Assembly (NCBI RefSeq): GCF_003334255.1
Contig: NZ_QOWU01000002.1
Direction: 5' to 3' (one strand)
Source: Escherichia coli
GTDB lineage: Bacteria; Pseudomonadota; Gammaproteobacteria; Enterobacterales; Enterobacteriaceae
DNA length: 64,000 bases
In this document: in pieces, positions 508 to 4,998 of the stretch
Numbering within the stretch: position 1 is the first letter of the stretch
How the letters are laid out: each line of letters begins with the position of its first letter
Position numbers and translations under genes: made by a program
The notes under the pieces: model-generated
What the model was told of the DNA's origin: nothing
Database searches by the model: none
Seen by the model: only the letters and a program-made list of their open reading frames with translations

Positions 508-2922
508 TCACCCCGCAAACTGCCTGAACAGCGCCTTACCCTTAACCAGTCTCGCGCCCAGCCAGCCGCCGAAAAGCGACAGCAGCAGCGCACCGCTGCA
601 CGGCAGAACAATCCACAATCGCCAGTCTGGCTCCCACGGGAAATCAAACACTTTCGCCTGCAACACTGCCAGTGCCGTTTCCGCACCAATTGCGGCCACC
701 AGGCCGGAAACAAACCCAAGCATGGCGAACTCACACCACAATGTCGTGCGCAGCAGTTTTTTCCCCGCACCGAGTGTGCGCCATACCACCAGCTCCTGAT
801 GACGCTGGCGCATTCCCACCTGCACCTGTGCCAGCAACAGCAACATACCGCAGGCGGTGACCAGCACCACCATCACCTCCAGCGCCCGACTTACCTGCTC
901 CAGCACCTGACCGACCTGTTTTAAAATCGCGCCAATATCTAACAGGCTAATGGTCGGGAACTGGCGGTTGAGTTGCGTCAACATGCCGTTGCCATTCTCC
1001 CAGCGGAAACTGGTAAGCCAGCTCTGCGGTTGCCCGTCTAATGCCCCTTCCGGGAAAATAAAATAGAAATTAGGCCGCAGACTTTCCCAGTCCACTTTGC
1101 GCAGGCTGGTCACTTTAGCGCGGAACTCCTGGGTATCGCCCATAAAAGTCACGGTATCACCGAGGGCAACGTTTAAGCGTTTCGCCAGCCCCTCTTCCAT
1201 CGACACTTCATCGGCTTTTGGCGGCCAGTTACCGGCGACAATCGGATTATGATCGGGCCGCGTATTTTGCCAGGTAAGATTGAGTTCGCGATTAAGCGCC
1301 TCATCTTCATTACCTTCTGTCGGCTTATCGTTAATCGCCGTCAGCCGCGCCCGCACTACCGGATAAAATGATTCCGGGACTATATGATGTTCCGCGAGGA
1401 ACGCTTTTAGCGGTGCTACCTGTTCTGTGGCGATGTTAATTAAAAAGTAGTTCGGGCTTTCTGGCGGTAGCTGCTGCTGCCAGCGGTCGAGCAGATCGCC
1501 ACGCAATACCAGCAACAGCGCCAGCAGCATAAAGGAGAGCGAAAATGCCGAAAGCTGACTTAACGTTGACCACGGCTGACGTAACAGGCGGCTAACCGCC
1601 AGGCGCAGAGGCAGCGATTTCAGCGTCATGCGGCGAAGTACATTCAGCAGCATCCAGCCCAGCACACCGCACAGCAAAGCCAGTACTACCGCGCCCGCCA
1701 GCACCGCCCAAAGCAGCATGCTGCCACCCATTAATCCGGCGAGCAGCAGCACAACCACCACACTGACAATCGGCAGATAAAACTTCAGCGGCCAGACGTT
1801 CGCTACCACATCATTACGTAATACGCGTAAAGGCTGCGTTGCCAGCAACAAGCGATATGGTCGTAGCCCCACCAGCAGCGAGATGACCGTCATGGTGCCA
1901 AGCGCCCACAGCCACGGCCAGAGGCTGGCTGGCGGTAGTGCAGCAGGCAGAACGGGCTTGAGCAGCACCATCAACACGTTTTCGAACAACAGACCTATGG
2001 CCCCACCGGTAACGGCTGAAAGCGTCAGCACCATCAACCACTGACCGACGATTAGCTTACGCAGTTGCGCTCGCCCTGCCCCCAGCGTTTTGAGGATCGC
2101 CACCAGATCGTAGCGACTGCGACAGTAATGATTCATCGCTACCGCCACCGCTGCCACTGCCAGCAGCAAGGTCAGAAGCGCCGAAAGCAGCAGGAACTGT
2201 TGCGAGCGTTCCATCGATCGCCCCAGCGCGCCTTCGTCCTGTTCCAGACCGTACCAGCGTTGTTCGGGTTTAAGCTGAGGTAACAACCATTTCTCATAGC
2301 CGTCGAGCTGGTTCTCGTTGCCGCCGAATTTATAACGCCAGGTGACCCGACTCCCCGGCTGCACGGCTCCGGTTTTATCGACATCCGCCAGATTCATCAT
2401 CAGACGCGGAGCCATCTGGAAGGGGTTAAAACCGGAATCCGGTTCCTGAATCACTTCTCCGGCAATCCGCAAGGTGGCATCGCCCACGTCAATGGTGTCG
2501 TCCGTTTTCAGGTTAAGCAGTGCCATCAGGCGTGGGGCCAGCAATACGCTGCCCGCCTGCGGTTTCAGGCCAGGGGGATTAGTTTGCAGATCGCCATACA
2601 TCGGGTAGATATCATCCACCGCTTTGACGTTCGCCAGCTGCGGTGTGTCGCCTGCAAAGGTCATTGTGGCGAAAGTCAGCTGCTTGCCGACTTTCAGGCC
2701 GCGCTTTTGCGCTTCCTCCAGCCACGCTTGCGGCACTTCGCGTGAACTGCGCAACGCCCGATCGCCCGCCATAAACTCACGGCTTTGCTGGCTTAAGCCC
2801 TTCTCCATGCGATCGCTGATATTGCCCAGCGCCAGCACGCAGGCCACCGCCAGGCTTAGCGCCAGCCAGACAATTAATAGCGACGGCGAACGCCATTCGC
2901 GCCAGAACCAACGTGCAATCAT
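508..2922 (-). CDS. ybbP: MacB/FtsX-type ABC transporter permease (two FtsX domains)
   Basis: 804-aa ORF, length and sequence match recalled K-12 YbbP; 4-bp overlap with ybbA. Confidence 0.93.
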   Translation of the reverse strand: MIARWFWREWRSPSLLIVWLALSLAVACVLALGNISDRMEKGLSQQSREFMAGDRALRSSREVPQAWLEEAQKRGLKVGKQLTFATMTFAGDTPQLANVKAVDDIYPMYGDLQTNPPGLKPQAGSVLLAPRLMALLNLKTDDTIDVGDATLRIAGEVIQEPDSGFNPFQMAPRLMMNLADVDKTGAVQPGSRVTWRYKFGGNENQLDGYEKWLLPQLKPEQRWYGLEQDEGALGRSMERSQQFLLLSALLTLLLAVAAVAVAMNHYCRSRYDLVAILKTLGAGRAQLRKLIVGQWLMVLTLSAVTGGAIGLLFENVLMVLLKPVLPAALPPASLWPWLWALGTMTVISLLVGLRPYRLLLATQPLRVLRNDVVANVWPLKFYLPIVSVVVVLLLAGLMGGSMLLWAVLAGAVVLALLCGVLGWMLLNVLRRMTLKSLPLRLAVSRLLRQPWSTLSQLSAFSLSFMLLALLLVLRGDLLDRWQQQLPPESPNYFLINIATEQVAPLKAFLAEHHIVPESFYPVVRARLTAINDKPTEGNEDEALNRELNLTWQNTRPDHNPIVAGNWPPKADEVSMEEGLAKRLNVALGDTVTFMGDTQEFRAKVTSLRKVDWESLRPNFYFIFPEGALDGQPQSWLTSFRWENGNGMLTQLNRQFPTISLLDIGAILKQVGQVLEQVSRALEVMVVLVTACGMLLLLAQVQVGMRQRHQELVVWRTLGAGKKLLRTTLWCEFAMLGFVSGLVAAIGAETALAVLQAKVFDFPWEPDWRLWIVLPCSGALLLSLFGGWLGARLVKGKALFRQFAG

Positions 2923-3605
2923 GCTTCCTCCTGCAACTGCCCGTTCACCAGCCGTAAGCAGCGGTCGCAGCGTGCCGCCAGTTGCAGGTCGTGGGTCACC
3001 ATAATCAACGTGGTGCCATGTTCACGGTTGAGGGAAAACAGCAGGTCGGCAATTTTATCGCCCGTCTGGCGGTCAAGGTTGCCGGTGGGTTCGTCGGCAA
3101 ACAGCACATCAGGTCGACCATTAAAGGCTCGTGCCAGCGCCACTCGTTGCTGTTCACCGCCGGAAAGCTGTGCCGGAAGATGATCCAGACGTTTACCCAG
3201 CCCTAACTGTTCGAGCAACGCTTTCGCCCCGTTACGACTTTCCGCGCTACTCTCACCGCGCAGCAGAGCCGGAAGCTCGACGTTTTCCAGCGCGTTAAGG
3301 GTAGGAATTAACATAAATGACTGAAAAACAAAGCCGACGTGCTTCGCGCGCAACTTTGCCCGCGCTTCTTCGTCCATATTATGTAGCGGTTGTCCCACCA
3401 GACTCACTTCGCCACTGCTGCCGTCATCAAGCCCGGCGAGGATCGCCAGCAAGGTTGACTTACCCGATCCCGACTCGCCCACCAGTGCGATGGTCTCGCC
3501 ACGTTTGACAACCAGCTCAACTCCGGTGAGGATGGAGAGTTCATGCTCCCCCTGACCGACGGACTTCTTAAGATGATGAACTTCAACAATGTTTTCCGCT
3601 GGCAT
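2919..3605 (-). CDS. ybbA: ABC transporter ATP-binding protein
   Basis: 228-aa ORF with Walker A GESGSGKST and ABC signature LSGGEQQR. Confidence 0.93.
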   Translation of the reverse strand: MPAENIVEVHHLKKSVGQGEHELSILTGVELVVKRGETIALVGESGSGKSTLLAILAGLDDGSSGEVSLVGQPLHNMDEEARAKLRAKHVGFVFQSFMLIPTLNALENVELPALLRGESSAESRNGAKALLEQLGLGKRLDHLPAQLSGGEQQRVALARAFNGRPDVLFADEPTGNLDRQTGDKIADLLFSLNREHGTTLIMVTHDLQLAARCDRCLRLVNGQLQEEA

Positions 3606-4199
3606 TTGCCCTTCCTGTTCCTGGTCCTGTTAACCTTCCGTGCCGCCGCAGCGGACACGTTATTGATTCTGGGTGATAGCCTGAGCGCCGGGTATCGAAT
3701 GTCTGCCAGCGCGGCCTGGCCTGCCTTGTTGAATGATAAGTGGCAGAGTAAAACGTCGGTAGTTAATGCCAGCATCAGCGGCGACACCTCGCAACAAGGA
3801 CTGGCGCGCCTTCCGGCTCTGCTGAAACAGCATCAGCCGCGTTGGGTGCTGGTTGAACTGGGCGGCAATGACGGTTTGCGTGGTTTTCAGCCACAGCAAA
3901 CCGAGCAAACGCTGCGCCAGATTTTGCAGGATGTCAAAGCCGCCAACGCTGAACCATTGTTAATGCAAATACGTCTGCCTGCAAACTATGGTCGCCGTTA
4001 TAATGAAGCCTTTAGCGCCATTTACCCCAAACTCGCCAAAGAGTTTGATGTTCCGCTGCTGCCCTTTTTTATGGAAGAGGTCTACCTCAAGCCACAATGG
4101 ATGCAGGATGACGGTATTCATCCCAACCGCGACGCCCAGCCGTTTATTGCCGACTGGATGGCGAAGCAGTTGCAGCCTTTAGTAAATCATGACTCATAA
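3573..4199 (+). CDS. tesA: Thioesterase I / lysophospholipase L1 (GDSL family), secreted precursor
   Basis: 208-aa frame from MMNFNN with signal peptide and GDSLSAG motif; start chosen inside the 218-aa track ORF. Confidence 0.9.
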   Translation: MMNFNNVFRWHLPFLFLVLLTFRAAAADTLLILGDSLSAGYRMSASAAWPALLNDKWQSKTSVVNASISGDTSQQGLARLPALLKQHQPRWVLVELGGNDGLRGFQPQQTEQTLRQILQDVKAANAEPLLMQIRLPANYGRRYNEAFSAIYPKLAKEFDVPLLPFFMEEVYLKPQWMQDDGIHPNRDAQPFIADWMAKQLQPLVNHDS

Positions 4200-4998
4200 A
4201 GCAACGGAGATCCTGACAGGTAAAGTTATGCAAAAATCGGTCTTAATTACCGGATGTTCCAGTGGAATTGGCCTGGAAAGCGCGCTCGAATTAAAACGCC
4301 AGGGTTTTCATGTGCTGGCAGGTTGCCGGAAACCGGATGATGTTGAGCGCATGAACAGCATGGGATTTACCGGCGTGTTGATCGATCTGGATTCACCAGA
4401 AAGTGTTGATCGCGCAGCCGACGAGGTGATCGCCCTGACCGATAATTGTCTGTATGGGATCTTTAACAATGCCGGATTCGGCATGTATGGCCCCCTTTCC
4501 ACCATCAGCCGTGCGCAGATGGAACAGCAGTTTTCCGCCAACTTTTTCGGCGCACACCAGCTCACCATGCGCCTGTTACCCGCGATGTTACCGCACGGTG
4601 AAGGGCGTATTGTGATGACATCATCGGTGATGGGATTAATCTCCACGCCGGGTCGTGGCGCTTACGCGGCCAGTAAATATGCGCTGGAGGCGTGGTCAGA
4701 CGCACTGCGCATGGAGCTGCGCCACAGCGGAATTAAAGTCAGCCTGATCGAACCCGGTCCCATTCGTACTCGCTTCACCGACAACGTCAACCAGACGCAA
4801 AGTGATAAACCAGTCGAAAATCCCGGCATCGCCGCCCGCTTTACGTTGGGACCGGAAGCGGTGGTGGACAAAGTACGCCATGCTTTTATTAGCGAGAAGC
4901 CGAAGATGCGCTATCCGGTGACGCTGGTGACCTGGGCGGTAATGGTGCTTAAGCGCCTGCTGCCGGGGCGCGTGATGGACAAAATATTGCAGGGGTGA
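4189..4998 (+). CDS. ybbO: Short-chain dehydrogenase/reductase family oxidoreductase
   Basis: 269-aa ORF with SDR glycine-rich motif TGCSSGIG and YxxxK. Confidence 0.9.
   Translation: MTHKATEILTGKVMQKSVLITGCSSGIGLESALELKRQGFHVLAGCRKPDDVERMNSMGFTGVLIDLDSPESVDRAADEVIALTDNCLYGIFNNAGFGMYGPLSTISRAQMEQQFSANFFGAHQLTMRLLPAMLPHGEGRIVMTSSVMGLISTPGRGAYAASKYALEAWSDALRMELRHSGIKVSLIEPGPIRTRFTDNVNQTQSDKPVENPGIAARFTLGPEAVVDKVRHAFISEKPKMRYPVTLVTWAVMVLKRLLPGRVMDKILQG

Follow-up and report, generated by a model that had tools for sequence, protein, structure and literature searches.

The closest described system is the YbbAP-TesA complex of Escherichia coli, which McAndrew et al. (PLoS Biol 2025; PMC12646458) co-purified and whose structure they solved (PDB code 9GE8). 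The same study reports that the tesA-ybbO operon partly overlaps the divergent ybbA-ybbP operon, describes co-evolution, suggests mechanotransmission as the mechanism and a lipid-like molecule as the substrate, and notes that a distinctive deletion phenotype is lacking. YbbAP-TesA consists of a Type VII ABC transporter and a periplasmic GDSL hydrolase, and in this respect resembles LolCDE-LolA, FtsEX-EnvC and MacAB-TolC, other Type VII ABC systems of E. coli that have a periplasmic partner. It differs from these, however, in that YbbP is one fused chain with two FtsX domains, and in that the partner is an enzyme whose gene stands head-to-head with that of the ATPase, whereas elsewhere the partner is encoded in the same operon or at a distance in the genome. 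At the transcript level, ExcludonFinder (Sanmartin et al., NAR 2025; PMC12288877) places tesA-ybbA among 16 divergent excludons in E. coli MG1655, and RNA-seq gives the excludon call in 50% or more of 58 transcriptomes from E. coli. Classical excludons involve overlap of untranslated regions and genes of opposing function, whereas in tesA-ybbA it is the coding sequences that overlap, and the two products belong to the same complex.

The stretch of DNA analyzed here (64,000 nucleotides, hereafter the window) derives from the E. coli chromosome, and we are highly confident that it carries the ybbP-ybbA/tesA-ybbO locus encoding the published YbbAP-TesA complex, with tesA and ybbA sharing coding sequence and holding their expression signals inside each other. 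On the minus strand, ybbP (508–2,922) encodes an 804-residue Type VII (MacB-type) ABC permease and ybbA (2,919–3,605) a 228-residue ABC ATPase with an ATG start, the ybbP ATG and the ybbA stop codon overlapping by 4 nt (ATGA). On the plus strand, tesA (3,573–4,199) encodes a 208-residue GDSL/SGNH hydrolase precursor (207 residues when counted from ATG3576), and is followed by the gene of the SDR aldehyde reductase YbbO (4,228–4,998 from its conserved start). The annotated ybbO start is at 4,189, but the NCBIfam model alignment begins at residue 14, and M14 is kept in 17 genera, many of which either lack the upstream ATG or have it behind stop codons.

YbbP matches the NCBIfam equivalog ABC_perm_YbbP with 1453.7 bits (cutoff 999), contains two FtsX domains (PF02687, residues 247–363 and 683–793), i.e., the duplicated FtsX-type TM domains of a Type VII permease, and is identical over residues 1–804 to the chain in PDB entries 9GE6/7/8, including 9GE6 chain A. 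YbbA matches the equivalog PRK10584 over model positions 1–228 of 228 (478.8 bits, cutoff 336), with LolD, MacB and FtsE as second-ranking NCBIfam matches, and its translation carries the Walker A motif GESGSGKST and the signature LSGGEQQR of ABC ATPases. TesA matches the equivalog PRK10528 (413.3 bits, cutoff 270), and residues 27–208 match PDB 1IVN and chain 9GE8_T (405.8 bits for the latter). The SGNH/GDSL blocks are all present, i.e., the GDS(L) serine of block I, the glycine of block II, GxND in block III and DxxH in block V, and an alignment of 32 sequences extending down to 37% identity shows no variation at residues G34, D35, S36, G70, G97, N99, D100, D180 and H183. With YbbP identical over 804 residues and mature TesA matching 9GE8_T, the locus is the same as that of the published complex.

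The initial annotation had taken the tight divergent arrangement as a hint of a functional link between TesA and YbbAP, which is now experimentally established by the co-purification and cryo-EM structure (PMC12646458), and had described ybbA-ybbP as lacking an established substrate, which is still roughly true of the natural substrate. The head-to-head overlap that it pointed out is correct but already known, both the layout and the partnership having been published in 2025. That paper does not dissect the overlap; our analysis adds an assignment of the tesA start codon, dual coding in codon register, a promoter and a Shine-Dalgarno (SD) sequence embedded in the partner reading frames, the mapped transcription start site (TSS), and the CATG-sharing starts in other Gammaproteobacteria.

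The tesA open reading frame spans 3,543–4,199 and offers in-frame ATG codons at 3,543, 3,573 and 3,576. Translation from ATG3573 yields the 208-residue precursor and a 33-nt overlap with ybbA (3,573–3,605), and ATG3576, the start used by RefSeq PGAP, yields 207 residues and a 30-nt overlap. The frames are codon-registered, in that the CAT codon of TesA His11 is the antisense of the ybbA ATG, and opposite strands of the same 30–33 nt are translated as tesA and ybbA. Within the dual-coding segment (3,573–3,605, both strands), delimited from the sequence and from synonymous diversity, the n-region of TesA (M1–H11) is antisense to YbbA M1–H11; the first 10–11 codons of the signal peptide, a part that tolerates sequence variation, are in this way the codon-registered antisense of YbbA residues 1–11. 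There is no intergenic DNA between the genes, and all expression signals consequently lie inside the partner gene.

The need for such an overlap is apparent from the export signal of TesA. The Sec signal peptide (3,573–3,650, plus strand; 26 residues, MMNFNNVFRWHLPFLFLVLLTFRAAA) ends directly before the mature start at 3,651, in agreement with the solved TesA structures, whose chains begin at residue 27. Judged from its sequence, the precursor has the make-up of a Sec substrate, with a positively charged n-region (MMNFNNVFRWH), a hydrophobic core (LPFLFLVLLTF) and an AxA site (RAAA, followed by AD). From the ybbA ATG to the mature N-terminus there are only 15 codons, so that a signal peptide of normal length must reach into ybbA. 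As the signal peptide is cleaved, the start itself is without direct protein-level proof.

Synonymous-site constraint across Enterobacterales bears out the proposal that tesA and ybbA share coding sequence. Third-position diversity in ybbA, compared over 17 genera of Enterobacterales, is 0.09 for codons 2–11, the lowest among 170 sliding windows, as compared with 0.49 in codons 35–228; in tesA, it is 0.15 in codons 3–14 and about 0.46 elsewhere. The third positions of ybbA Pro2, Ala3, Glu4 and Glu8 are near-frozen, and YbbA His10 and His11 are encoded by CAT in 29/29 cases, which preserves the tesA ATGs. The Pectobacterium locus (L013) was excluded from the codon analyses on account of a 15-codon insertion in the region of the signal peptide and an unclear ybbA start. 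Purifying selection is seen in both frames across the shared segment, the hallmark of overlapping genes. Low synonymous variation at the 5′ ends of genes may in part reflect constraint on translation initiation; a generic effect of this kind is, however, disfavored by codons 2–11 of the control gene ybbP, where synonymous diversity is 0.38 as opposed to 0.09. An Rfam scan of 3,200–4,300 (E ≤ 1) gave no match, which leaves the conservation without a known sRNA or leader to explain it.

These data also bear on whether tesA might instead start at TTG3606, abutting the ybbA ATG, with the upstream ATGs being accidental antisense of YbbA His10 and His11. Versions of TesA with 194–197 residues that start at TTG3606 occur in the annotations of some gene callers, TTG or GTG is found at this position in 11/17 Enterobacterales sequences, and an open antisense frame can arise by chance, as codon-registered ones often do. 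TTG3606 is missing, however, in Citrobacter werkmanii, Rahnella, Photorhabdus, Providencia and Acerihabitans, its SD energy is −1.5 kcal/mol, and it would leave a signal peptide of ~15 residues lacking a charged n-region. TesA R9 is found in 17/17 genera of the Enterobacterales alignment. The invariant CAT codons and the near-frozen ybbA third positions furthermore go beyond what ybbA coding alone explains. On the grounds of conservation, signal-peptide shape and synonymous-site constraint, we reject this start, which we consider exceedingly improbable; as the overlap-removing downstream codon disfavored by this evidence, it does not overturn the overlapping tesA start of the initial annotation. 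Of the 17 Enterobacterales loci examined, all have ATG3573 and/or ATG3576, whereas neither ATG3543 nor TTG3606 is conserved, and the tesA start is assigned to ATG3573/3576, in contrast to the 194–218-residue variants found in databases.

The tesA promoter is of the sigma-70 type and lies with the leader within ybbA codons 12–34. Kim et al. 2012 (supplementary file 2) mapped the tesA TSS to 519021(−) with 45 reads and a 5′ UTR of 32 nt, and the sequence given upstream of this site matches 3,491–3,541 in the window. The TSS accordingly corresponds to T3541 and the 5′ UTR to 3,541–3,572 (plus strand), in ybbA codons 12–22. A relaxed promoter scan combined with the alignment assigns the −35 element to TTGACA (3,505–3,510, plus strand; ybbA codons V32-V33-K34) and the −10 element to GAGGAT (3,528–3,533, plus strand), with a 17-bp spacer and the TSS 8 nt downstream, so that the promoter (3,505–3,533) occupies ybbA codons 25–34 and the −35 box has the correct spacing from the mapped TSS. 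The top match of the relaxed scan predicts a TSS near 3,540, as compared with 3,541 mapped; a strict scan of 3,200–4,000 for sigma-70 promoters and terminators returned no promoter. The −10 element reads AAGGAT in most other Enterobacteriaceae of the alignment. Positions G3507 and A3510 of the −35 box, which are four-fold sites and the third positions of ybbA Val codons 33 and 32, are invariant in the 17-genus alignment; third-position diversity is zero at codon 33, and residue 32 varies between V, L and I. Diversity is lowered to 0.25–0.32 across ybbA codons 12–34.

The mapped TSS also bears on the third candidate, i.e., that tesA is translated mainly from ATG3543, with a 63-nt overlap and a 218-residue precursor. 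This codon has by far the best SD of the candidate starts (GGAGAG, −8.4 kcal/mol), whereas that of the assigned start is weak and near background (−3.2 kcal/mol); ATG3543 is furthermore present in 9/12 Enterobacteriaceae sequences, and TesA of 218 residues appears in some metagenome gene calls. With transcription starting at 3,541, however, ATG3543 would have a leader of 2 nt and its SD would lie outside the mRNA. The codon is missing from loci L003 and L005 as well as from more distant genera, and is GTG in L010, and the third position of the opposite ybbA codon, His21, varies (diversity 0.28). With its SD excluded by the TSS and the ATG unconserved, ATG3543 is discarded as the tesA start; we judge it very unlikely to be the main one.

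In the opposite direction, the ybbA SD sequence (AGGAAGGG, 3,609–3,616, minus strand; duplex energy −7.0 kcal/mol) is embedded in TesA codons P13-F14-L15, and its CCCTTCCT is mostly conserved in the alignment. Two weakly supported ybbA TSSs, with 2 reads each in Kim et al. 2012, map inside tesA on the minus strand, at 3,760 (518802(+), 155-nt leader) and at 3,992 (518570(+), 387-nt leader). The initial annotation had placed the promoters of the two units inside each other's reading frames, and this is where they are found, with the tesA promoter and TSS in ybbA and the sole mapped ybbA TSSs in tesA. At tesA synonymous sites, no conserved ybbA promoter signal is visible in the 17-genus alignment. 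The available part of the Kim et al. 2012 supplements lists no Klebsiella TSS for tesA-ybbA, and the RpoD genomic-SELEX paper covers only the ybbP-rhsD spacer and makes no mention of the tesA-ybbA junction.

Beyond Enterobacterales, a divergent ybbA-ybbP adjoins tesA in 78/78 evaluable loci (80 fetched). Because the 80 fetched loci represent the top-ranking TesA matches and cluster in the phylogeny, with 14 from Pseudomonas and 6 from Vibrio, the counts are not independent. In roughly 60 of the 78 loci, from several orders, the start codons are at most about 12 nt apart. The starts often share CATG, and such starts yield canonical signal peptides in Vibrio, Salinivibrio, Psychromonas, Rheinheimera, Marinobacterium, Nitrincola, Dokdonella and Cycloclasticus. 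Most non-enteric relatives have a start-to-start distance of no more than about 10 nt, often with the AT of CATG shared. Where the gene pair is kept, spacing ranges from the −33-nt overlap to gaps of >100 nt in Marinobacter, Aeromonas, some Halomonas and Salinicola. We infer that the layout is ancestral in Gammaproteobacteria, and Enterobacterales appear to have moved the tesA start about 10 codons deeper into ybbA.

Judged on published TSS data only, the 5′ transcription of tesA and ybbA overlaps as in divergent excludons, by at least 220 nt in antisense. From the TSS positions, the tesA and ybbA mRNAs would be complementary over this length or more and the polymerases would converge, which fits the RNA-seq call of a divergent excludon. 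The stronger tesA promoter might dampen ybbAP transcription by collision, occlusion or antisense pairing, which would leave TesA in excess over the membrane complex; the absence of intergenic DNA may also lock the partner genes together. That such dampening and the resulting TesA excess are physiologically significant is conceivable, though we hold it to be somewhat doubtful. Mutual repression is counter-intuitive for members of one complex, an observation that speaks against interference.

A stronger proposal is that the near-zero start spacing, from CATG-sharing to the 30–33-nt overlap, is a selected device in which the embedded convergent promoters and the antisense 5′ mRNA of at least 220 nt determine how much TesA is made relative to YbbAP, or shift TesA between its free state and the membrane complex, through transcriptional interference or RNase III cleavage; we regard this as unlikely. 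We give an even chance to the reading that the overlap, while real, has no regulatory meaning and reflects drift of start codons in a compact and ancient gene pair, with an n-region that tolerates almost any sequence and expression levels that are set independently. The range of spacings among lineages that keep the pair agrees with such drift, as do the lack of a visible conserved ybbA promoter at tesA synonymous sites and the joint action of TesA and YbbAP, which speaks against mutually exclusive expression. The close start spacing across several orders, the recurrent excludon calls in E. coli transcriptomes and the converging promoters with their antisense overlap of about 220 nt argue against it.

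The locus offers little new biology as such, as the layout can be read from any E. coli annotation, and structural and biochemical work has shown the link between TesA and YbbAP. Of practical value is the tesA start, which is fixed at ATG3573/3576 as opposed to the 194–218-residue database variants. Furthermore, the anatomy of the junction implies that a standard deletion of tesA or ybbA should take with it the promoter, ribosome-binding site or first codons of the partner, and single-gene phenotypes at tesA/ybbA would thereby be confounded. The tesA-ybbA pair provides a clean and deeply conserved test case of whether genes for partner proteins are regulated through an overlap of this head-to-head kind.

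The coding sequences of tesA (ORF 3543..4199, plus strand) and ybbA (2919..3605, minus strand) overlap at their 5' ends, and we conclude that the overlap, at 3573-3605, is genuine dual coding. In the ORF list these genes are flanked by ybbP (508..2922, minus strand) and ybbO (4189..4998, plus strand), and the same four genes are annotated across 2400-4700, a region matched in 5,419 of 5,426 complete E. coli genomes at 95-100% identity. TesA, YbbA and YbbP exceed their curated NCBIfam equivalog cutoffs (413 bits vs 270, 479 vs 336 and 1454 vs 999, respectively), and YbbP carries two FtsX domains. The ybbP of the window is an intact 804-aa ORF, whereas in the best-matching RefSeq genome, E. coli strain G1/2, the gene is annotated as a frameshifted pseudogene (1258-3523 of locus L001).

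In this antisense frame the stop codons pair with sense codons that are rare, and an open frame alone is therefore no proof of coding. In the high-GC loci L069, L073 and L078 (Pseudomonas, Halomonas), the tesA frame runs without a stop for 700-1100 codons opposite ybbA-ybbP, which has probably led to over-extended database TesA calls of 230-450 aa. The overlap described in the initial annotation is instead borne out by start-codon conservation, signal-peptide spacing and low third-position diversity. Three ATGs, at 3543, 3573 and 3576, lie in frame in the tesA ORF. ATG3573, used in the initial annotation, gives a 208-aa TesA and a 33-nt overlap, and ATG3576, the RefSeq PGAP start, a 207-aa TesA and a 30-nt overlap; the former alone is retained in Photorhabdus, the latter alone in Superficieibacter, Enterobacter sp. 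Bisph1 and Mangrovibacter. Two Enterobacteriaceae and more distant genera lack ATG3543, and one has GTG in its place; this ATG has the best Shine-Dalgarno (SD) energy (-8.4 kcal/mol, against a weak -3.2 for ATG3573 and ATG3576), but its SD lies upstream of the mapped tesA transcription start site (TSS). The sole start able to abolish the overlap, TTG3606, is missing in Citrobacter werkmanii, Rahnella, Photorhabdus, Providencia and Acerihabitans. Furthermore, the N-terminus of mature TesA lies only 15 codons from the ybbA ATG, the solved structures starting at residue 27, and a normal signal peptide must therefore extend into ybbA.

Across the overlap the codons of the two genes are exactly aligned: the tesA His11 codon, CAT, is the reverse complement of the ybbA ATG, which places position 2 opposite position 2 and each wobble base opposite the partner's first base. 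Third-position diversity at conserved residues is 0.09 in ybbA codons 2-11, which overlap tesA coding sequence (the lowest of 170 sliding windows), 0.32 in codons 12-22 beneath the tesA leader, 0.25 in codons 23-34 beneath its promoter and 0.49 in codons 35-228. The corresponding values are 0.15 for tesA codons 3-14 and about 0.46 for its later codons, and 0.38 for the control 5' end of ybbP (codons 2-11) and 0.45-0.46 for the later ybbP codons. YbbA His10 and His11 are encoded by CAT in all 29 informative cases, and the tesA ATGs are thereby preserved.

The initial annotation also placed the two promoters within each other's ORFs, which holds for tesA. A relaxed sigma-70 scan found a -35 box, TTGACA (3505-3510), and a -10 box, GAGGAT (3528-3533), with a 17-bp spacer and a TSS predicted near 3540. 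The genome-wide map of Kim et al. 2012 (PMC3415461, supplementary file 2) contains a single tesA TSS (45 reads), 32 nt upstream of ATG3573; the sequence upstream of it is identical to window 3491-3541, which assigns the TSS to T3541. Promoter, TSS and leader thus lie inside ybbA, the -35 box within codons Val32-Val33-Lys34, and the Val third positions in this box (G3507 and A3510) are invariant across a 17-genus alignment. Conversely, the ybbA SD, AGGAAGGG (3616..3609, -7.0 kcal/mol), falls on TesA codons Pro13-Phe14-Leu15. The only ybbA TSSs mapped by Kim et al. 2012, at 3760 and 3992 with 2 reads each, are both in tesA, and these few reads suggest that the ybbA promoter or promoters lie there. 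A conserved ybbA promoter was looked for at tesA synonymous sites and none was seen; transcription of ybbA thus seems to be weak or diffuse. The same map has a weak internal TSS within ybbA (about 3072, minus strand, 3 reads), lying 150 nt ahead of ybbP, even though the two genes are translationally coupled through ATGA.

An alignment of TesA from distant relatives served as query for 80 genomic loci, of which 78 could be evaluated after a degraded Candidatus Pantoea persica locus and a redundant E. coli hit were left out. These loci come from Enterobacterales, Vibrionales, Alteromonadales, Pseudomonadales, Oceanospirillales and Xanthomonadales, with one from Burkholderiales. In 78/78 the gene directly upstream of tesA, on the other strand, encodes a YbbA homologue, which is followed by a YbbP homologue wherever the flank suffices, except at one locus (Massilia). 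In the Candidatus Pantoea persica symbiont (L018, 5350-6620), only short remnants of ybbA and ybbP are left and the tesA match is split into two parts that differ in frame; the locus seems to be decaying as a whole. Outside Enterobacterales, start-codon spacing falls into four groups: a 2-nt overlap, CATG (Vibrio, Salinivibrio, Psychromonas, Rheinheimera, Marinobacterium, Nitrincola, Dokdonella, Cycloclasticus and several MAGs), where only the ATG sharing AT with that of ybbA yields a canonical signal peptide; abutting starts, CATATG (Pseudoalteromonas, Aliidiomarina); a 9-nt gap with the tesA SD GGAG atop the ybbA start (Pseudomonas); and larger gaps of about 25-440 nt (Marinobacter, Aeromonas, some Halomonas, Salinicola). 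Near-zero spacing is thus the common and probably ancestral state, and in Enterobacterales the n-region of the signal peptide has been extended further into ybbA to give the 30-33-nt overlap. The locus counts are phylogenetically non-independent.

At the other end of tesA, the annotated ybbO start, ATG4189, overlaps the tesA stop by 11 nt and has probably been placed too far 5'. The NCBIfam match to YbbO begins at residue 14, MQKSVLITG (from ATG4228) is conserved in 17/17 Enterobacterales sequences, several genera lack the upstream ATG or have in-frame stops after it, and the SD energies are +0.7 kcal/mol for 4189 and -3.8 for 4228. Throughout Enterobacterales tesA is followed by a ybbO homologue, which among the other loci was found only in Salinivibrio (L021, 6636-7448, 42% identity); conservation of the tesA-ybbO operon thus falls far short of that of the tesA/ybbA pair.

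The functional link proposed between tesA and ybbAP agrees with the published physical association of their products: the YbbAP-TesA complex has been co-purified, its cryo-EM structures solved (9GE6/7/8) and inter-protein co-evolution described (McAndrew et al., PLoS Biol 2025, PMC12646458; bioRxiv May 2025). The YbbP and TesA of the window match the deposited chains of this complex over all 804 residues and over residues 27-208, respectively. Moreover, tesA-ybbA is among only 16 divergent excludons in MG1655 (ExcludonFinder, NAR 2025, PMC12288877). Observation, here confirmed, and interpretation, here supported, are thus both already in the literature, and the finding is a known one; the present analysis adds the assignment of the tesA start codon, the anatomy of the embedded promoter and SD, and the starts that share CATG in other lineages across Gammaproteobacteria.

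With TSSs at 3541 and at 3760 and 3992, at least 220 nt of the two mRNAs are mutually complementary, and the polymerases run towards each other. It is a speculative and somewhat doubtful possibility that the stronger tesA promoter lowers ybbAP expression, through convergent-promoter interference or antisense pairing; at least as likely is a neutral alternative, in which the overlap is tolerated because the signal-peptide n-region is almost sequence-free. Judging from this anatomy, a standard deletion of either tesA or ybbA would be expected to remove expression signals or codons of its partner.
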